Shown here: in pieces, positions 3,518-26,836 of the stretch
Layout of the letters: every line of letters begins with the position of its first letter
Numbering within the stretch: the stretch's first letter is position 1
DNA from: Minisyncoccota bacterium
GTDB lineage: Bacteria > Patescibacteriota > Minisyncoccia > Minisyncoccales > GCA-002788555
Assembly: GCA_028716825.1 (NCBI GenBank)
Contig: JAQUPA010000001.1
Coordinates: 13,071 to 77,070, forward strand
Length of the DNA: 64,000 nt
Direction: 5' to 3'
Program-made: the position numbers and the translations under genes
The notes under the pieces: generated by a model
Database searches by the model: none
What the model was told of the DNA's origin: nothing
Seen by the model: the letters and a program-made list of their open reading frames with translations, nothing else

Positions 3518-3652
3518 ATGAGCATAACTTATCAACCCAAAAATAAAAAAAGAAAAAAGACGCACGGTTTTAGAAAGAGATCAAAAACAAAGCCAGGCAA
3601 GAAAGTTTTAAAAAGAAGACGAGCAAAAAAAAGAAAAAAATTAACTCATTAA
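3518..3652 (+). CDS. rpmH: 50S ribosomal protein L34
   Basis: Translates to [44 protein letters not shown], which matches the L34 consensus (KRT.QPS...R..THGFR.R). It is absent from the ORF track because it is under 60 aa. Confidence 0.9.
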
Positions 3653-3653
3653 A

Positions 3654-3992
3654 ATGCTCCCTTCTAAGAATCGTCTAAATAAAAAAGAAGTTGAAACCAT
3701 ATTTAAAAAAGGGGAAAGTTTTAAATCAGATTTTTTGCTTTTAAAGATTTCCAAGAGCAAAAAACAATCCCCTCTTCGCTTTTCGGTTATAGTGCCAATT
3801 AAAGTATCAAAGAAAAGCACAGAAAGAAACAAAATAAAACGTCGGATAAGAGAAAGCTTAAGAAAAAAAATTAAAAACACTAAAGAAGTAGATGGAATTA
3901 TAATGGCTTTTCCAGAGATATTAGGTAAGCCTTACCAAGAAATCGATGAAGAACTAGACAAGTTGTTAAAAGCCAGTAATCTTTTGTTATGA
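3654..3992 (+). CDS. rnpA: ribonuclease P protein component
   Basis: 112 aa, basic, beginning LPSKNRLNKKEVETIFKKGESF, directly after rpmH (the conserved rpmH-rnpA-yidC order). Confidence 0.85.
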   Translation: MLPSKNRLNKKEVETIFKKGESFKSDFLLLKISKSKKQSPLRFSVIVPIKVSKKSTERNKIKRRIRESLRKKIKNTKEVDGIIMAFPEILGKPYQEIDEELDKLLKASNLLL

Positions 3993-4046
3993 GACAAACA
4001 GATGATTAAATAAGGAATAATTTTAATTTATAATTTTTAGATAACT

Positions 4047-4811
4047 TTGAATATGAACCCTCTAACTTTTATTTTTCAGAAAGTTCTCTATCAGCCATTT
4101 TTGAATATATTGGTTGTTTTTTACAACCTTCCAATGATTGATTTTGGGCTGGCTATAATTTTATTAACGATTTTAGTAAAGGCAGCGACTTGGAGACTTG
4201 ATACACATGCTATTTTAAAGCAAAGGGAGGCTCAAATAAAAGGAGCAGAAGTTCAGGAAGAGATGAAAGAACTTCAGGAAAAATACAAAGATGATCCGAT
4301 GAAACAAAGCGAAGAGATTAGAAAACTTTGGAAAGAAAAGAAGTTTAATCCTTTCTCAAGTTTCGCACCGATGATAGTACAAATAGTTATTTTGATTGCT
4401 CTTTTCCAGATTTTAAGAACAAATATTGGCCCTGAGCAGTTAAAGTTACTTTATCCATTTGTAAAAAACCCAGGAGAGATTAATCCTATGTTTTTGGGAA
4501 TTATAAACTTAGCAAAGGCAAGCCCTGTTTTGGCCGTATTAACCGGCGTTGTGCAGTTTATTTATTCAAAGCTTACTTTTTCCATGCAAAAAAAATATAA
4601 GCCAAAAACAAAGAAGAAAGATAAGAAAAAGAAAGAAGGCACTTTCCAAAAAGTAATGCAGAATCAAATGATTTATTTTTTGCCAATATTTACTGTGATT
4701 ATTTGTCTTACCTTGCCTGCGGCGTTACCTCTTTATTGGTCTTTATCTACTGCGGTTGGTATTTTACAAACAAAAATTGTTTATCGCAAAATAGAAGCCG
4801 AAAACAAATAA
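4047..4811 (+). CDS. yidC: membrane protein insertase YidC (short Gram-positive/CPR form)
   Basis: 254 aa with several TM helices, a charged coiled region and a Lys-rich tail. Position after rnpA. Confidence 0.85.
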   Translation: MNMNPLTFIFQKVLYQPFLNILVVFYNLPMIDFGLAIILLTILVKAATWRLDTHAILKQREAQIKGAEVQEEMKELQEKYKDDPMKQSEEIRKLWKEKKFNPFSSFAPMIVQIVILIALFQILRTNIGPEQLKLLYPFVKNPGEINPMFLGIINLAKASPVLAVLTGVVQFIYSKLTFSMQKKYKPKTKKKDKKKKEGTFQKVMQNQMIYFLPIFTVIICLTLPAALPLYWSLSTAVGILQTKIVYRKIEAENK

Positions 4812-5352: not shown

Positions 5353-6348
5353 TTAAAAGGCGTTCATAATAACTCCCACTTCTTCTTCCCATTTTGAATT
5401 TCCATTTTTACATTCATAAGTTATTTGGCCACCATCAGAGAGAGTTACTGGTGGATTTTCTCCGAGGTCCCGTTCATAACCACACCACCTTAATCTAAAT
5501 TCTTTTATGCCAGTTAATCTCTTATACATTTCAGTTCCAGCGTTTTTTGTACACGCCCTTATTCCTTCTTCCCAGGAGCCATATCTTTTGCAAGGGAGAC
5601 AGGCTATGCCACAAGGATTATTTGTTCCATAAAGCCCATTGCCCGACTGTAGATTTTGAAGGCCCATACTAGTTTCAGCGTTAGCAATGCCAAGCATAAA
5701 AGTTGGGTTAACGCCGTATTCTTTGCCCGTTTCAACATAGACATTCCCCTTTCCTATTAATGGGCTTTTAGGAAAGTTTGTTTTTAGATAATTTTCAATT
5801 TCCTCAGTCGTGGCTGCATTTGTGTCCCAAATATCAGAAGAGTTCCCACTACTGCTTGAGGGGCTTCCAGAAGAAGGATAATATTTAGACATATATTCTT
5901 CCACCATTTCTTTTAAAGAAGGCCCTTCGTAAACATACTCTTTAACGTTTAGGTCTTTTAATGTTAAAAGATTTGGGTTAATTAGCGCTAAAATTGAAGC
6001 TGAAAACAATATAATTATAAGCCCTAAGATCGCATTTAATACTTGCTCCCTTCCCTTTTCTAGCTTTGTAGGATTTCCAGAAGATGTCATTAATCGAAGC
6101 CCTCCGATTATTAACATTAACATTGCTAAGGCTCCTGCGCTAACTACGGCAAATCTATAAATATAGACAATATAATCAGGAAGAGTAGTTGTTGGGGCCT
6201 TGCCAAAAGCTTCTGGGTACTCAACTTCTGGCTCTATTTGAGCATAGGTTGTTTTAGGAGAGGCTAATTCCAAGAAAGATATAATCGCGATTAAAATCAA
6301 AAAAAAGGTAAAAGTTTTAGTAACTTTTTTGTATATAGATTTTCGCAT
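5353..6348 (-). CDS. VirB2/TrbC-type pilin module fused to a peptidoglycan-hydrolase-like (glucosaminidase/lysozyme-like) domain
   Basis: Signal peptide, then two closely spaced TM helices (YRFAVVSAGALAMLMLIIGGLRL...ILGLIIILFSASILALINPNL), the VirB2/TrbC topology. A Ser-rich linker follows. The C-terminal domain contains GVNPTFMLGIANAETSMG (resembles the glucosaminidase motif) and 6 Cys. Confidence 0.55.
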   Translation of the reverse strand: MRKSIYKKVTKTFTFFLILIAIISFLELASPKTTYAQIEPEVEYPEAFGKAPTTTLPDYIVYIYRFAVVSAGALAMLMLIIGGLRLMTSSGNPTKLEKGREQVLNAILGLIIILFSASILALINPNLLTLKDLNVKEYVYEGPSLKEMVEEYMSKYYPSSGSPSSSSGNSSDIWDTNAATTEEIENYLKTNFPKSPLIGKGNVYVETGKEYGVNPTFMLGIANAETSMGLQNLQSGNGLYGTNNPCGIACLPCKRYGSWEEGIRACTKNAGTEMYKRLTGIKEFRLRWCGYERDLGENPPVTLSDGGQITYECKNGNSKWEEEVGVIMNAF

Positions 6349-6352
6349 TATT

Positions 6353-7540
6353 TTATTTAATACAGGTACATCTTGGCATTATGTCAAGGTGGTCTGGTGC
6401 CGTATAGTAGCCTTTTTCGTATGCATACTCTGCTTCGCAAGCAGAAGTATACCCAAATTTATATCCCTCTAATCTTTTGCAATAATCCATGCAAAAATCA
6501 TGGTTTCCGCTTCTGCATTCAGGAATATTTTCTAAATTATTCTGTCCTTTAAAATAAGCAGCTGTGGTGCCGTCATTCTTACATAGACAAAAAGCAGGGT
6601 TTTTGCCCGAAGCGCTTAATTGAAAAGTTTGCACTGAGCTGAACGAATCTTCATGGGCCTGATAGCAGCTGCAAGCGACTGGATCTCCTCCATCTACATG
6701 ATTAAGTTTGGTACATTCAGAAGGAAGCCCACCTAATGCTCTGTCTTTTGGCGCTATTACTCCGTATACATTTTTATTATCTTTATGGTATTTTTGACAG
6801 AGACCCATGCAAAAGTTACCACAACTATTTGAAAGTCCTCCTTCCCTACCCTGACACTCACAGGTTTCTAAAGGTAGTCCTTCTGTACATTTAAAGTTTT
6901 TAAATTCGTCTGCATCAGGAGGACTACAGAGTGCACGAGTTAATAATTTTGCATATGCGCCTGAACTATTAACAGGAAGATCAAAAGAATTCCCCATACT
7001 TCCTAATTTTCCGAGCATTATTGAATTTGCGATAGCAATACCATTCGCAGTATAGATAAAATTCCCAGCCATTAAATCTTTTTTTATTTTATCTTCTTCG
7101 CCAGCATTACTTAATGTAGGTTCTTTTATGACTACATCTTTCAATCTTACAAGATCCGGGTTGATTGTTCTTAGGACAATATAAATACTAAAAAGAGCAA
7201 GTAGGCCTATAATTGAACGTGTTATTTTATCTCTTGCCGCAGCCTTGAGCTGGGGATTGGCAGCTGCGCCTGACCATTCTATACCGCCGATTATTATCAT
7301 AATTACTGCTAAAAAAGCGCCAACCCAAAAAGAAAATTGATAAACATACTTTATATATTCTGGTAGATTTGGTTCAGGCGGATTCCATGGATAAGTTACC
7401 TCCCAGCCTCCCCAATCTGCTGCAAAAGATAAATTAAAAATAAAAAACAGTGCAAAAACAAAAAGAATAGATAAGGCAAAAATGATTTTATTTCTCTTTT
7501 TCATATTTTTTATTTTATCCCCTATTTTGTTGGAACGCAA
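6353..7540 (-). CDS. VirB2/TrbC-type pilin module fused to a Cys-rich extracytoplasmic domain (paralog of 5353-6348)
   Basis: Same N-terminal architecture (signal peptide, then YQFSFWVGAFLAVIMIIIGGIEW...IIGLLALFSIYIVLRTINPDL). The ~200 aa C-terminal domain has 18 Cys, including CEC, CSC, CLC and CTC pairs. Confidence 0.55.
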   Translation of the reverse strand: MRSNKIGDKIKNMKKRNKIIFALSILFVFALFFIFNLSFAADWGGWEVTYPWNPPEPNLPEYIKYVYQFSFWVGAFLAVIMIIIGGIEWSGAAANPQLKAAARDKITRSIIGLLALFSIYIVLRTINPDLVRLKDVVIKEPTLSNAGEEDKIKKDLMAGNFIYTANGIAIANSIMLGKLGSMGNSFDLPVNSSGAYAKLLTRALCSPPDADEFKNFKCTEGLPLETCECQGREGGLSNSCGNFCMGLCQKYHKDNKNVYGVIAPKDRALGGLPSECTKLNHVDGGDPVACSCYQAHEDSFSSVQTFQLSASGKNPAFCLCKNDGTTAAYFKGQNNLENIPECRSGNHDFCMDYCKRLEGYKFGYTSACEAEYAYEKGYYTAPDHLDIMPRCTCIK

Positions 7541-18959: not shown

Positions 18960-20420
18960 TTATTTAATCCAAAATTTATTTTTGTCTTCTTGATCAACTT
19001 CAATTTTTTTCTCTTTCACTCTTTTTTCTTTAGCTTTTAGTTCTTTTTCATTAAGTTTTGCTAATTCTTTTGTTCGTTTTTTTAAGAATTCTTTTTTATT
19101 TTTCTTTGGATCGTCAAGCACTTCGGACAAAAGGGCATTTAAAACCAATCCTACTCTTGGTCCTGATTTTGTTTTAAGAATTTTCATTATTTCATTTCCG
19201 TTTATTTTTAACATTTGAACAGAAATTGGGTCTCGTGAGACCTTGGATACCATATATTCAAAATGACGCAACCTATATGGCCTTGCTTTTGGAACGCCAG
19301 AGCCTTTTCTATCAGTAATTCTTAACTGTACAAGTTCTTCCATGTTTTCCTTGCCTACTTTTTTGAGTAGTCTTCTTACGGAGGATTCTGTCACAACCTC
19401 GGGGTCGTAAAAAAACATATGATTTCTTATTAAAGTGCCTACCTTTTCTACGGTTTTTTTGGGGAACCTTAGTCTTTCTAAAATTCCCATTGCAATTTTT
19501 GCTCCAACAATATCATGGTTATAAAAAGTTGCATCCGGCCCCTCCCCGCTTTTTGTCTGGGGCTTTGCAATATCATGGAAAAGAGCTGCCAGCCTTACAT
19601 TTAAATTGTAATTGTATTTTACAGCATACTTTAGAGATAAAAGTGCGTGCTGGAAAATTGTATATATGTGATGGCGGTTCTGGGAAACTCCAAAACCTTT
19701 TTCAAGCTCAGGAATAATATATTTTAAAAGATTTGTTTTATGTAGGAGCATAAGGCCATCATAAGCATATTCAGACATTATAATTTTTTCAAATTCTTCT
19801 TTTATTCTTTCTTTTGATATTGCTTGTAACCATGGGGCGTTCTTTTTAATAGCGCTTAAGGTTTTTTGTTCTATTTTCCAATCAACACCAAGGGTTGTTG
19901 CAAACCTTACGGCGCGCAATAACCTTAATGCGTCTTCTGAAAATCTTTTTTTTGGCTCCCCCACTGCTTTTATAATTTTGTTTTTAAGGTCTTTCCGCCC
20001 TAAAAAAGGATCAGTAATTGTTATTTCTTTTTTCTTGCCATCTGTTAGCTTGAGCGCGATTGCATTTACCGTAAAATCACGTCTTGCAAGGTCTTCTTCT
20101 ATTGTTTTTGCCCAATTTACTTTATCTGGGTGTCTTTTGTCGGTATATTTTTCCTCGTTTCTATAAGTCGTAATTTCAACCTCAAAAATGTCTTTTTTAT
20201 TTGTAGGAATTTTTACGGTAACTGTTCCGAATTTATTTTTATAAAAGCTGTCTGGAAACACCTTTTGAATTTCTTTTGGGTTTGCGTTTGTTGCAACGTC
20301 CCAGTCTTTTGGGATAGCTTTCCTTAAAACGTCTCTAACACAGCCACCTACAATATAAGCTTCAAAATTAGCTTTCTTTAGGTTTTTTATTACTAATTTT
20401 ACTTCTTTTGGGATTTCCAT
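18960..20420 (-). CDS. cca: CCA-adding tRNA nucleotidyltransferase with HD domain
   Basis: GGCVRD motif and an HD domain (LAALFHDIAKP). Confidence 0.85.
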   Translation of the reverse strand: MEIPKEVKLVIKNLKKANFEAYIVGGCVRDVLRKAIPKDWDVATNANPKEIQKVFPDSFYKNKFGTVTVKIPTNKKDIFEVEITTYRNEEKYTDKRHPDKVNWAKTIEEDLARRDFTVNAIALKLTDGKKKEITITDPFLGRKDLKNKIIKAVGEPKKRFSEDALRLLRAVRFATTLGVDWKIEQKTLSAIKKNAPWLQAISKERIKEEFEKIIMSEYAYDGLMLLHKTNLLKYIIPELEKGFGVSQNRHHIYTIFQHALLSLKYAVKYNYNLNVRLAALFHDIAKPQTKSGEGPDATFYNHDIVGAKIAMGILERLRFPKKTVEKVGTLIRNHMFFYDPEVVTESSVRRLLKKVGKENMEELVQLRITDRKGSGVPKARPYRLRHFEYMVSKVSRDPISVQMLKINGNEIMKILKTKSGPRVGLVLNALLSEVLDDPKKNKKEFLKKRTKELAKLNEKELKAKEKRVKEKKIEVDQEDKNKFWIK

Positions 20421-20489
20421 AATTGTGAATTTTGAATAACGAATAATGAATTGCGCTTATTTTATTCTATCTTTTTGATGTTTAATTTT

Positions 20490-20538
20490 CAAATGTTTCA
20501 CGTGAAACATTTGATAGTATTGTTTCACGTGAAACAAT
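20490..20538. promoter_or_regulatory. two tandem perfect palindromes (24 bp CAAATGTTTCACGTGAAACATTTG and 20 bp ATTGTTTCACGTGAAACAAT) upstream of cca, candidate operator
   Basis: Read directly from the sequence, 70-120 nt upstream of the cca start. They share the core TGTTTCACGTGAAACA. Confidence 0.6.
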
Positions 20539-20610
20539 CTTTGACTATTTTTTTAATTTTATTTAAAATTTTATCAGTGATGGTAGAATTTTGCGTTGTT
20601 GTTTATTTTT

Positions 20611-20682
20611 GCCCTCTTGGTATAATGGATAACACGCGACGCTTCGGACGTCGAGTTGGGGGTTCGAATCCCTCAGAGGGCA
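20611..20682 (+). tRNA. tRNA-Arg (anticodon TCG), CCA not encoded
   Basis: Acceptor GCCCTCT/AGAGGGC, D-arm GGTATAATGGATAA, anticodon stem CGACG/CGTCG with loop CTTCGGA, T-arm GGGGGTTCGAATCCCTC. Confidence 0.8.
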
Positions 20683-20699
20683 CGAGATAGCTAAAAATA

Positions 20700-20880
20700 G
20701 ATTAAAGGATGCGGGTTTCCCGAAATTGTCTGCGAGTGAAGGGAGTAATTACAATTTCGAGGATCCCGTTATCTCGAAATTTCCCCAAATAGATTTATTT
20801 ACAGACAAACGGGATCGCGAAAATCTAACTTCGCTCTACTTCAGAGATTTTCGGGACAAATCCTGCCGGGCGCATAAAAA
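20700..20880 (+). ncRNA. GC-enriched structured leader or small RNA between tRNA-Arg and the pilin gene (three consecutive stem-loops)
   Basis: Three pairings: CCCGAAATTGT/ACAATTTCGAGG, GATCCCGTT/AACGGGATC and CGAAAATCT/AGATTTTCG. GC is well above the local background. Confidence 0.35.
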
Positions 20881-20888
20881 TTAAAAAT

Positions 20889-21290
20889 ATGAAAAAAAAT
20901 TATAAATTATTTCTTTTAATATTTATTTTTATTATTTCTCCATTTATTATTCAGGCAGCTGGCTTGGTGCCTTGTGGTGGAGATGGTGAGCCTAGCTGTG
21001 GTCTTTGTCATCTCTTTGTAATGATAAGAAGCGTAATTGTATTCTTAACTGGAATTGCTGCTGTTGTGCTTGCAATAATGCTTATTGTTGGGGGAATTAT
21101 GTTTGTTACAGCACATGGGAATCCTGAATGGGTGACAAAAGCAAGAAAGACCATTACAGGAGCGATAATTGGTTTTCTGATAGTTATTATGTCTTGGATT
21201 ATTGTAAATTCGGTCATAACGTTTGCTACTGGCAGTGAGAATATATTTCAAAACATGGGTCCTTGGCATAAAATCCAATGTAATCCTTAA
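20889..21290 (+). CDS. stand-alone VirB2/TrbC-type pilin
   Basis: 133 aa. Signal peptide, then two TM helices (VIVFLTGIAAVVLAIMLIVGGIMFV and GAIIGFLIVIMSWIIVNSVITF). Same module as the N-termini of 5353-6348 and 6353-7540. Confidence 0.55.
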   Translation: MKKNYKLFLLIFIFIISPFIIQAAGLVPCGGDGEPSCGLCHLFVMIRSVIVFLTGIAAVVLAIMLIVGGIMFVTAHGNPEWVTKARKTITGAIIGFLIVIMSWIIVNSVITFATGSENIFQNMGPWHKIQCNP

Positions 21291-21432
21291 GCCATTTAAA
21301 CTCTTCAAGATTTAGATTGTTTTTAGCGAATTTAATTTTTTAACGAATCTTTTTTATTAAACCAGGATGGTAATATTTTGATTTGAGTATTTGACCCTTG
21401 AAAAAAATAATTAAATTTTATATAAACAAGAT

Positions 21433-21461
21433 ACAGACAATATTTATTGTCTGTTTTTTTA
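21433..21461 (+). terminator. rho-independent terminator
   Basis: ACAGACAATATTTATTGTCTGT hairpin followed by a T7 run. Confidence 0.7.
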
Positions 21462-21556
21462 ACCAAGGATTGTATCCATCCCGATTTTCTTTAAATTTAT
21501 GGTTTAGAAAATCGTGAATCCTCGAGTTCTTAATAAAATTAAAATTTTAACGAATT

Positions 21557-21630
21557 CGGGATAGCTCAACTGGCACCTGCCCGCCAACGTCCTGATCCGT
21601 AGGTGATGGCAGGCGGGGGATAGGAGTCAG
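21557..21630 (+). other. tRNA-like / GC-rich hairpin element of unknown identity
   Basis: Starts with the tRNA-like 5' part GGGATAGCTCAACTGG, but no D-stem partner or T-arm can be found. Contains a strong hairpin CCTGCCCGCC...GGTGATGGCAGG. GGGATAG is repeated at both ends. Confidence 0.3.
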
Positions 21631-21637
21631 TTTAAAT

Positions 21638-21710
21638 TGCCCCGTTAGCTCAATTGGTAGAGCAGATCCCTCTTAAGGATAAGGTTGAGCGTTCGAGTCG
21701 CTCACGGGGC
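21638..21710 (+). tRNA. tRNA-Lys (anticodon CTT), CCA not encoded
   Basis: Acceptor GCCCCGT/ACGGGGC, D-arm GCTCAATTGGTAGAGC, anticodon loop CTCTTAA, T-arm GAGCGTTCGAGTCGCTC. Confidence 0.85.
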
Positions 21711-21768
21711 ATAAATTTGACGGGATAAAAGTCTTGCCGGATGCAATAAAATTAATATTATTAAAAAT

Positions 21769-23073
21769 ATGGAAGAAATAGATTTAAAAACATTGTCGCT
21801 TGCGATAATGCAAATAGCAGAAGAAAAAGGCATTGCCAAAGACAAAGTAATTGAAGTTATAGAGACTGCCCTTGCTGCTGCCTATAAAAAAGAGTATGGC
21901 AAGAAAGAGGAAAAATATCATGCTAAGTTTGATAAGGACAGCGGAAAGGTGAATTTTTGTTTAGTAAAGAAAGTAGTTGATGATGATATGATTTTAGATG
22001 AAGATGAGGTTGAAGAAGAGGAAGAAGAAAAAACAGAAGAAAACGAAGAAAGAGAGCAAGATTTTGAAGAAGGGGAAGGAGAGAGGAAGGTTAAGTTCAA
22101 TGAATTTCGTCATATCAAAATAGAAGAAGCCGTAAAGACAAAAAAAGATGTAAAGCCGGGGGACGAAATAGAATTTCCTTTAAAAAAACCAGAAAGATTT
22201 GGCAGAATTGCAGCACAGACAGCAAAGCAAGTGCTTTTGCAGCGGATTAGAGAAGCGGAAAGGGAAGCGATATACTCTGAGTTTGATCAGAAAAAAGATG
22301 AAGTTATTTCTGGTATAATACAAAGAAAAGAAGGAGATCAGGTTTTTGTTGACGTCGGAAAGACTATCGCTTTTTTGCCCAGAGAAGAACAAATTCCGGG
22401 AGAGTTTTATAAAGTTGGAGCAAGAATGCGTTTTTATTGTATCGCTGTCAAAGAAACCCCAAGGGGCCCTGAAATTGCGATTTCACGATCGCACCCTAAA
22501 TTCTTATCAAAACTTTTTAAAATTGAAGTGCCTGAAATTACTTCTGATATAGTTGAAATTAAGGCCGTTGCAAGAGAAGCGGGTTCTCGTTCTAAAATTG
22601 CAGTTGCTGCAAGTGAGGAAGGCGTTGATCCAGTTGGAAGCTGCGTTGGTCAGCGCGGCACGAGAGTTAACGCTGTCATGCAGGAGCTTGGGAGGGAAAA
22701 AATTGATATTATTCCTTGGGATGAGAGACCTGAAAAGTTTATTGAAAATGCTTTATCTCCAGCAAAAATTATTAGCGTAAAAGTAAAAGGAAATAAGGCA
22801 GAGGTAAGAGTTCCAGAGGATCAAATATCTTTGGCTATTGGCAGAGACGGTCAAAACGTGAGGCTTGCAAGCGATCTTACTGGTTGGAAGATAGATGTGA
22901 AAACTATTGAAAAGGGCGAGGAAGAAGAAAAAGAAGAAAAAGAAGAAAAAAGAGACGAAGAAGAGAAAAAGGCAAAGAAAAATGTAGAAAAAGAAGATAA
23001 AAAAACAACCAAAAATTCAGCAAAAAATAAAAAGGCCAAAAAAGAAGAAAAAACTAAAGAAAATAAAAAATAA
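21769..23073 (+). CDS. nusA: transcription termination/antitermination factor NusA
   Basis: N-terminal domain, S1 and two KH domains (GSCVGQRGTRVNAV). Has an acidic insertion and a Lys/Glu-rich C-terminal tail. Confidence 0.85.
   Translation: MEEIDLKTLSLAIMQIAEEKGIAKDKVIEVIETALAAAYKKEYGKKEEKYHAKFDKDSGKVNFCLVKKVVDDDMILDEDEVEEEEEEKTEENEEREQDFEEGEGERKVKFNEFRHIKIEEAVKTKKDVKPGDEIEFPLKKPERFGRIAAQTAKQVLLQRIREAEREAIYSEFDQKKDEVISGIIQRKEGDQVFVDVGKTIAFLPREEQIPGEFYKVGARMRFYCIAVKETPRGPEIAISRSHPKFLSKLFKIEVPEITSDIVEIKAVAREAGSRSKIAVAASEEGVDPVGSCVGQRGTRVNAVMQELGREKIDIIPWDERPEKFIENALSPAKIISVKVKGNKAEVRVPEDQISLAIGRDGQNVRLASDLTGWKIDVKTIEKGEEEEKEEKEEKRDEEEKKAKKNVEKEDKKTTKNSAKNKKAKKEEKTKENKK

Positions 23074-23849: not shown

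Positions 23850-26836
<2,987 letters not shown>

Follow-up and report, generated by a model that had tools for sequence, protein, structure and literature searches.

A palindromic three-hairpin repeat within a tRNA-Arg fragment next to a VirB2-like pilin gene of a Minisyncoccota bacterium

In the genome of a Minisyncoccota bacterium (GenBank assembly GCA_028716825.1), a tRNA-Arg gene and a small pilin gene are separated by a stretch of DNA that folds into consecutive stem-loops, which raises the question of what this spacer is and whether it serves the gene behind it. The locus lies in a segment of 64,000 nt from contig JAQUPA010000001.1 (positions 13,071 to 77,070 of the forward strand), called here the window and numbered from its first letter. 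A sequence-only reading had proposed that the spacer could be a cis-regulatory RNA for pilin expression or the remnant of an attachment site. In this work, we argue that it is very probably neither a pilin leader nor a single entity, but two layers of debris, namely a fragment left by tRNA-Arg turnover and a palindromic repeat of a presumably mobile type, named ins1, inserted in that fragment.

The spacer and its counterparts in related genomes

The features on which the argument rests are given below; L001 denotes a near-identical strain and L002 a relative.

20611..20683, plus strand: intact tRNA-Arg(TCG) of 'type 1', with the T-loop TTCGAAT; the same allele occurs in L002.
20684..20706, plus strand: linker of 23 nt (CGAGATAGCTAAAAATAGATTAAA region), read from the sequence.
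20707..20717, plus strand: part a of a type-2 tRNA-Arg fragment, GGATGCGGGTT, which covers the variable loop, the 5' strand of the T-stem, T54 and T55; identical to the L001 tRNA-Arg at 3587-3660 (alignment A1).
20718..20856, no strand assigned: ins1, a palindromic three-hairpin repeat of 139 nt with the ends TCCCGA...TCGGGA; not in L001, no target-site duplication.
20718..20763, no strand assigned: ins1 hairpin module 1, stem 20721-20729/20751-20759; 95.6% of cells paired over 17 homologs, where seven pairs covary.
20764..20815, no strand assigned: ins1 hairpin module 2, stem GATCCCGTT / AACGGGATC (20762-20770/20808-20816); proximal stem 99% paired and nearly invariant.
20816..20856, no strand assigned: ins1 hairpin module 3 (terminal), CGAAAATCT...AGATTTTCG-GGA, stem 20818-20826/20845-20853; present in at least 120 metagenome contigs.
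20857..20874, plus strand: part b of the type-2 tRNA-Arg fragment, CAAATCCTGCCGGGCGCA, which covers T-loop positions 56-60, the 3' strands of the T-stem and acceptor stem, and A73; identical to L001.
20889..21290, plus strand: VirB2-like type IV secretion system (T4SS) pilin gene of 133 aa (PF18895; homologs P0001-P0008), syntenic in about 19 loci.

The comparison was made with L001 and L002, which share the gene order of the window (rRNA methyltransferase, efp, cca on the minus strand, tRNA-Arg, pilin, tRNA-Lys, nusA, and ppa). In the pilin homology search, the L001 protein was 100% identical over the pilin part and the L002 protein 78% identical; no database record matches the pilin, CCA-adding enzyme or NusA of the window exactly. 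Window and L001 agree at 158/158 positions upstream and at 604/614 over the pilin gene and the sequence downstream of it, while the three-way alignment of these genomes with L002 contains one clean gap of 139 nt in L001, facing 20718-20856. When the flanks of this gap, GGATGCGGGTT and CAAATCCTGCCGGGCGCA, are joined, they make up the 3'-terminal 29 nt of the tRNA-Arg gene in L001. There, the empty site is GGGTT directly followed by CAAAT, and the filled site adds exactly ins1, with the target neither duplicated nor lost; ins1 splits the type-2 fragment exactly between T-loop positions 55 and 56. The pilin ATG stands 13 nt from tRNA-Arg in L001 and 23 nt from it in L002.

The fragment and the intact gene are different alleles. 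The intact tRNA-Arg of L001 is 'type 2' (GCGCCCGTAGCTC...), and that of the window and L002, which both ARAGORN and Rfam call at 20611-20683 in the window, is 'type 1' (GCCCTCTTGG...). On the 5' side of its type-2 gene, at 3555-3586, L001 carries GCTCTCATGGTATAATGAAAAAAAC, which is identical to the type-1 5' end at 20/25 positions (manual count). Each strain thus appears to retain a remnant of the other's tRNA-Arg allele, even though the flanks are 98-100% identical. The linker at 20684-20706 may be the decayed D-arm of the type-2 tRNA, to which it bears a weak resemblance. Two further observations concern L001: TGGTATAAT within 3555-3586 is also readable as an extended -10 box, and the L001 pilin is annotated as a protein of 204 aa that reads through a tRNA.

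The sequence-only reading had placed the pilin gene about 200 nt behind tRNA-Arg and described the spacer as unusually GC-rich and folded into three consecutive stem-loops. The spacer is 205 nt long (20684-20888), and the three stem-loops are indeed there, as three perfect 9-bp inverted repeats. The statement on composition stands relative to the two adjacent intergenic regions (39.5% GC against 23%; ins1 alone, 41%), but the excess is only modest, with 35.1% for the whole window. The spacer folds at -54.6 kcal/mol (z = -2.8), and 3/200 shuffles fold equally well. For the window copy of ins1, the minimum-energy fold is one long rod of -47.1 kcal/mol, against -34.4 kcal/mol for three hairpins. 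No Rfam family was found in the spacer at gathering score or at E <= 10 when 20400-21800 was searched; Rfam also returned nothing in four homolog-bearing loci. The only open reading frame (ORF) across ins1, of 52 aa, has no homologs and was rejected as a gene.

To place the locus in a wider clade, species-representative genomes were scanned with the CCA-adding enzyme encoded next to it, which yielded 31 loci from metagenome-assembled genomes of Parcubacteria/Paceibacteria at no more than 63% amino-acid identity. The tRNA-Arg(TCG) gene adjoins cca in most of them, and in about 19 (among L003-L033) a pilin homolog lies between tRNA-Arg and tRNA-Lys(CTT). In loci whose pilin comes directly after the tRNA, no more than 100 nt, and in most cases fewer than 50 nt, separate the 3' end of the tRNA from the first in-frame ATG; in three or four loci, other DNA of 0.9-2.8 kb lies between tRNA-Arg and pilin. 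The L001 and L002 spacers lack the stem-loops, as do about 19 other Parcubacteria loci that share the gene order, and by this comparison the long structured spacer appears peculiar to the window strain. Since the order of tRNA-Arg, pilin and tRNA-Lys is conserved in these loci, the pilin gene is ancestral here and not tRNA-targeted cargo, and its arrival by integration at the tRNA, an idea prompted by its position, is not supported.

A family of short repeats and the places where its copies sit

Homologs of ins1 were sought in metagenomes with a pattern made from its terminal hairpin, consisting of TCCCGAAAATCT, 12-20 nt, and AGATTTTCG; with 21 specified bases, few chance matches are expected by our own estimate. 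The pattern was found at no fewer than 134 sites, in the contigs mentioned above, and the matches share homology well outside it. A search with nhmmer and ins1 gave full-length homologs with E-values down to 3e-15, and 17 full-length copies of 139-155 nt could be aligned over all three modules (alignment A2). This three-hairpin repeat family is apparently undescribed.

On the 17-copy alignment, the three local hairpins have 93.6% of cells paired, with 14 pairs changed on both sides; 0/500 shuffles reach the observed value, and slid controls are 26-53% paired. The invariance of hairpin 3 in this alignment is a product of the search pattern and not independent evidence, whereas hairpin 1, with its covarying pairs, is unconstrained by it. 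Mismatches in the helices comprise 17 G.U and 20 A.C in 690 cells, with no strand asymmetry, and this equal frequency suggests a DNA palindrome rather than an RNA acting from one strand. Helices across modules can also be drawn (columns 9-20/95-108 and 54-63/148-157), some of their pairs covary, and a rod or a pseudoknot-like alternative fold is possible; they arise because all arms are variants of one sequence of about 18 nt. With 82.7% of cells paired, such pseudoknot-like helices are less supported as the main structure than the local hairpins.

Several traits of MITEs (miniature inverted-repeat transposable elements) are present in ins1: terminal inverted repeats (TCCCGAAAtTgTCTG / CAGAgAtTTTCGGGA, 15 nt, 87% complementary), the lack of an ORF, a length below about 300 bp, many copies, and presence/absence polymorphism. 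A trait that is missing is a target-site duplication, which was not found at ins1, at the second element of the window (ins2, described below), or at the L118 insert. The ins1 family has no match in phage and plasmid collections, and a degenerate hairpin pattern searched in viral contigs gave 14 matches, 0 with complementary arms, which we regard as chance.

The copies recur in tRNA gene fragments. L049 repeats the arrangement of the window, in which an intact tRNA is followed over a short spacer by a tRNA 3' fragment that has the element between T-loop positions 55 and 56, and L052 does so twice, one of its copies having further modules nested into the first hairpin; L102 has such a 3' fragment with the element at the same position and no intact tRNA in the stretch read. 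A two-module relative with the same terminal hairpin occupies the D-loop of 5' tRNA fragments that end in the anticodon loop and stand directly 5' of an intact tRNA of the same type (L118, L104, and L074). In L118 (1840-2300, minus strand), three tandem units of 153 nt precede an intact tRNA-Met, each consisting of tRNA-Met positions 1-35 with a two-hairpin D-loop insert of 99 nt and a leader of 27 nt. Comparable D-loop insertions were also seen at genes for tRNA-Arg(TCT), Asn, Ala, Leu, and Phe, and double units resembling those of L118 were noted in L067, L076, and L143. All tRNA hosts examined are fragments or decayed copies, and the L104 copy is in reverse orientation to its tRNA. Outside tRNA fragments, copies were seen within other palindromes or in ordinary intergenic sequence, as on either side of rplB. 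The motif CAA(A/G/T)T lies directly 3' of 10/19 three-module copies and is one that T-loops of the TTCAAAT type supply. Two candidate interpretations of these sites were rejected: when 134 sites were spliced in silico and passed to ARAGORN, 18 tRNA calls spanned the junction, but 9/9 examined were artefacts, fragments or decayed copies, and when cargo was sought over a long range between matching ends, housekeeping genes lying between separate copies (uL2 and EF-Tu) were all that came up.

A second element of this kind stands in the window, 620 nt from ins1:

21479..21561, no strand assigned: ins2, a hairpin element of 83 nt with the ends TCCCGA...TCGGGA, between positions 7 and 8 of a tRNA-Lys remnant; not in L001.

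On both sides of the functional tRNA-Lys(CTT) gene at 21638-21712 lie remnants of a different tRNA-Lys allele, one that L002 has kept intact. The 5' remnant comprises 21472-21478 and 21562-21575, and the 3' remnant 21733-21745; the functional gene sits between 5' and 3' remnants of the older gene in the window and L001 alike. Between remnant and gene lies a GC-rich filler of 62 nt (21576-21637); the terminal GACGGG of the new tRNA is found a second time at 21719-21724. A tRNA prediction after in silico removal of ins1 or ins2 gave no extra tRNA. An ins2 homolog in L025 (74% identical, full length, E 1e-9) splits the D-loop of a tRNA-Ala pseudogene and is followed by a TCCCGA-bounded unit with an ORF of the GIY-YIG type (Pfam E 3.5e-15), behind which comes an intact tRNA-Ala enclosed by an inverted repeat.

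Of the ORFs lying no more than 1.5 kb from a copy, just two small families are recurrent, namely 23S_rRNA_IVP, with 6 loci, and GIY-YIG proteins of 75-108 aa that comprise no more than the catalytic domain and form a blastp cluster drawn from 5 loci. All representatives tested with Pfam, three GIY-YIG and two IVP, were confirmed, and no transposase was found among the neighbours recurring at this distance. The GIY-YIG cluster members of L092, L108, and L150 stand beside intact or broken tRNA copies, that of L149 is inside a long inverted repeat, and that of L154 is in neither position. Long inverted repeats enclose IVP or GIY-YIG ORFs in L002, L025, and L149; in L002 (2840-3300), a 115-aa 23S_rRNA_IVP (PF05635) gene with inverted repeat flanks of about 26 bp lies between efp and cca, and it is not in the window or L001. 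In L029, a tRNA-Pro-like pseudogene broken in the T-loop is followed by a GIY-YIG ORF and an intact tRNA-Pro. As a side observation, a broken and an intact copy of one and the same tRNA (Ala, Pro, Asn, and Met) are separated by a small GIY-YIG gene in L025 3540-4150, L029 2000-2400, L108 around 3950-4750, and L092 1-650. The tRNA-Ala break in L024 and L025 falls between anticodon positions 35 and 36, which is also where the 5' fragments of tRNA-Met in L118 stop. A six-frame motif search found no GIY-YIG motif in the window. The association of GIY-YIG and IVP genes with the hairpins is one of proximity only.

Origin of the spacer and competing readings

The preferred explanation can be told as two successive events. 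In the first, the locus would have carried two tRNA-Arg(TCG) alleles, of which the window keeps type 1 intact and type 2 as its last 29 nt, while L001 keeps type 2 intact and a 5' remnant of 25 nt resembling type 1. In the second, the 139-nt element, built of three modules that are each bounded by TCC-CG...CG-GGA, would have inserted between T55 and C56 of the remnant T-loop. It belongs to a family of short, ORF-less palindromic repeats that is widespread in Parcubacteria-like and other uncultured bacteria, is presumably mobilised in trans by an enzyme, and may persist only where its copies are harmless, namely within pseudogenes or fragments of tRNAs, within other palindromes, or between genes. 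Two further features of the locus bear on expression:

20541..20589, plus strand: promoter-like sites, TTGACT-17-TAAAAT and TTTAAA-16-TG-TAGAAT, 5' of tRNA-Arg, from a consensus scan; putative function.
21433..21461, plus strand: intrinsic-terminator-like hairpin followed by a T-run, 3' of the pilin gene, kept in L001 and L002.

The promoter-like sites are the presumed start of a transcript that would hold both tRNA-Arg and pilin, from which the pilin mRNA is probably cut out, as it would begin with a tRNA. In the wider clade, the tRNA-flanked pilin with its short gap points to a transcript punctuated by tRNAs, which would leave the pilin mRNA almost without a leader. If so, the element would be a passenger in the pilin 5' untranslated region (UTR) in this strain.

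Several points weigh against this explanation. Mobility rests on one filled-versus-empty comparison per insert and on copy number, and no mobilising gene was identified. The three-module family has no second copy in the 64-kb window and is not high-copy in this segment; for ins1 and ins2 alike, the window contains no further copies. A general preference for hairpin loops was not significant in a flank test (mean stem 4.1 bp against 4.0 in the control). The terminal hairpin is identical in contigs resembling different phyla, which would also suit a conserved function, for instance as a protein-binding site, in place of a purely selfish repeat. L012, too, has a long spacer, of 100 nt and with a different hairpin, so the window strain is not alone in this respect, and an incidental effect of the element on pilin translation or mRNA stability may exist.

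The taxonomic range of the family can be described in part. In a blastx comparison with the window and named loci of the candidate phyla radiation (CPR), only a few of the homolog contigs could be tied to the lineage of the window (L052, 58% identity; L116, 54%). In L141 (1581-3427) and L158, two-module copies flank a tRNA cluster Thr-Tyr-Gly-Thr with tuf. The EF-Tu of these two contigs is, as we take it, Bacteroidota-like, and if this is correct, the terminal hairpin is shared across phyla.

Another reading takes the whole spacer as the scar of a tRNA-targeting integrative element, with an attR/attL copy of the tRNA-Arg 3' end and hairpins left over from a deletion. The tRNA fragment does span the variable loop to the 3' end, which corresponds to the segment that integrases using the T-loop sublocation duplicate; comparable 3' fragments are found 3' of intact tRNAs in L049 and L052, and tRNA alleles were replaced on both the Arg and the Lys sides. 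However, the allele of the fragment differs from that of the intact upstream tRNA, and nothing is duplicated, whereas tyrosine integrase recombination duplicates the crossover segment. No integrase is encoded between the neighbouring cca and nusA, and only 23 nt and the 139-nt element lie between the tRNA copies. The same element of 139-155 nt also occurs at many non-tRNA sites, which makes it a unit in its own right. We therefore give this scar little credence; of the attachment-site idea in the sequence-only reading, the 29-nt tRNA-Arg 3' fragment, a scar of the sort that integrative elements produce, stands, but the stem-loops are a separate 139-nt repeat inserted in it and not part of any remnant.

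It is similarly improbable that the elements are ORF-less derivatives of IS200/IS605, known as palindrome-associated transposable elements (PATEs), moved by a Y1 HUH transposase acting on subterminal hairpins. Hairpins at both ends and the missing target duplication would suit such an origin, as would the short preference beside one end that many three-module copies show, which on the other strand puts them 3' of nTTG. The ends of IS200/IS605 elements are not known to be inverted repeats of each other, but those of ins1 are, which is atypical for that group. Moreover, the two-module subfamily shares the terminal hairpin but has different flanks, no TnpA/TnpB gene is among the recurring neighbours, and the lack of strand asymmetry is unexpected for a substrate used as the top strand only.

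The elements could also be intervening sequences (IVSs), similar to those of 23S rRNA or to archaeal-type tRNA introns, which would have functional tRNA genes as hosts and be excised from, or tolerated in, the RNA. Their tRNA insertions are at unpaired positions (T-loop, D-loop, anticodon loop, and the 7/8 junction), and 23S_rRNA_IVP and GIY-YIG genes, ORF types that Tsurumaki et al. 2024 (PMC11270868) report for the non-intron inserts in rRNA genes of CPR bacteria, recur nearby. Yet each host examined is a fragment or a decayed pseudogene, usually beside an intact, insert-free tRNA, many copies are outside RNA genes, there is no strand asymmetry, and at least the L104 copy is reversed relative to its tRNA. 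This reading is very unlikely.

That the three stem-loops are a leader RNA controlling the pilin (a riboswitch, an attenuator, or a protein-binding 5' UTR) is scarcely credible: the element does sit between a promoter-like site and the pilin ATG, the spacer folds better than its shuffles, the hairpins are conserved with covariation, and mutually exclusive local and cross-module pairings exist, but the element is missing from the closest strain and from all syntenic relatives, its homologs lie in tRNA fragments, between ribosomal protein genes and by unrelated genes, in both orientations, G.U pairs are not in excess over A.C, and no Rfam family matches. The leader proposed from the sequence alone finds no support, and the outcome that the sequence-only reading had itself named as refuting, orthologous regions that lack the stem-loops, is the one observed. 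A false lead is thereby removed at this locus, with no evidence for a pilin riboswitch and with a pilin gene that is not island cargo.

The reading of two layers of debris may be extended in one doubtful direction. The hairpin modules and the catalytic-domain-only GIY-YIG genes, perhaps with the IVP genes, might form one system that attacks tRNA loops and drives replacement of the attacked gene by a resistant allele. If that were true, the type-2 tRNA-Arg (TTCAAAT, with the target ^CAAAT) would have been hit and replaced by type 1 (TTCGAAT), the neighbouring tRNA-Lys would have been replaced likewise, and the pairs of a broken fragment next to an intact tRNA would be the trace of such attacks. 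We consider this system, although compatible with the data, unlikely.

Related systems, the pilin gene, and minor observations

The ins1 element seems most like bacterial repeats of the MITE/REP type (REP, repetitive extragenic palindromic), the intervening sequences of rRNA, and the GC-rich hairpin clusters of mitochondria. Rickettsia palindromic elements, Correia elements, enterobacterial repetitive intergenic consensus (ERIC) sequences, and REP sequences with bacterial interspersed mosaic elements (REP/BIME) are examples of bacterial MITEs and palindromic repeats. Repeats of these types have been reviewed (PMC3184786), and ins1 shares with bacterial MITEs a size of 100-150 bp, the lack of an ORF, terminal inverted repeats, hairpin folds, multiple copies, and presence/absence polymorphism. 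It differs from them in the missing target-site duplication, in its modular three-hairpin build, and in a terminal hairpin common to apparently distant lineages.

The non-intron inserts of CPR rRNA genes contain GIY-YIG and 23S_rRNA_IVP ORFs, and many of them are ORF-less and below 200 bp (PMC11270868). Like these inserts and the IVSs of 23S rRNA, the present elements are extended hairpins at loop positions of structural RNA genes, exist in ORF-less forms below 200 bp and in IVP- or GIY-YIG-bearing forms, have no group I or II intron core, and are found in CPR hosts. In contrast to them, they reside in tRNA gene fragments and intergenic DNA and not in functional rRNA, and tRNA is not mentioned in that report. 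Inserts in rRNA, the turnover of tRNA genes, and differences among strains with very small genomes may be connected through this repeat family.

Yeast mitochondrial GC clusters such as GC42 (PMC4478555) and the hairpin-forming repeats of sponge mitochondria (PMC2800124) are likewise short GC-rich hairpin repeats in an AT-rich genome, and shared features of the mitochondrial GC clusters are constrained hairpins, merging and nesting arrays, strain polymorphism, and a position often near tRNA genes. Unlike the elements described here, those clusters are organellar and unrelated in sequence, and GC42 has a duplicated AG target (PMC4478555). Double-hairpin elements of Allomyces and palindromes of Neurospora flanking tRNA genes are cited in PMC4478555 as well. 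The hairpin repeats of this study insert without target duplication, nest in one another, and accumulate in tRNA gene fragments; they break tRNA predictions, give spurious ORFs, and can mislead searches for structured RNA.

In related loci, small GIY-YIG genes between tRNA copies and the replacement of tRNA alleles are reminiscent of SegB of phage T4, a free-standing GIY-YIG homing endonuclease in a tRNA cluster (PMC2330249). The GIY-YIG proteins considered here differ from SegB in having the catalytic domain only, and their link to the hairpins is again proximity.

The identity of the pilin gene agrees with the sequence-only reading, which had noted a 133-aa protein sharing a module with two larger ones. 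Its ORF matches Pfam T4SS_pilin PF18895 (E 5e-9, 36.5 bits, gathering cut-off 26.6), and the same module is found inside ORFs 5353-6348 and 6353-7540 (tblastn E 5e-8). The protein has a signal peptide followed by the motif AAGLVPCGG, and its translation, read by eye, has a hydrophobic N-terminus and two hydrophobic stretches; with its Pfam score, small size, signal peptide, and hydrophobic stretches, it has the characteristics of a VirB2-like T4SS pilin. A TrbL/VirB6-like gene lies near the paralogous pilin modules in the same window. In these respects, the gene resembles the VirB2-like pilins (PF18895) of Patescibacteria (PMC12102498), from which it differs by standing alone between two tRNA genes, a context on which PMC12102498, with no mention of tRNA, is silent.

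A 16-nt palindrome, TGTTTCACGTGAAACA, occurs in two perfect copies (20494-20509 and 20521-20536) between the cca start codon and the tRNA-Arg promoter-like site; both copies are in L001 and one is in L002. They have the look of operators through which a dimeric regulator could act on the divergent cca and tRNA-Arg-pilin promoters. In the 23S rRNA gene, window positions 24186-24232 hold an extra palindromic hairpin of about 45 nt (TCGGGAATTTTTCTCTC TTTT GAGAGAAAAATTTCTGAGGA) relative to the bacterial large-subunit (LSU) rRNA model, and its ends are not of the TCCCGA...TCGGGA type.

Downstream of cca in L003-L030, the distance from tRNA-Pro(CGG) to tRNA-Ala(CGC) is 2-5 nt in six loci and 470-2370 nt in ten. 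The wider gaps hold a methyltransferase with a restriction-like ORF, an HAD-like ORF, tgt, or surface-repeat proteins, and this gap looks like a second insertion hotspot between tRNA genes.

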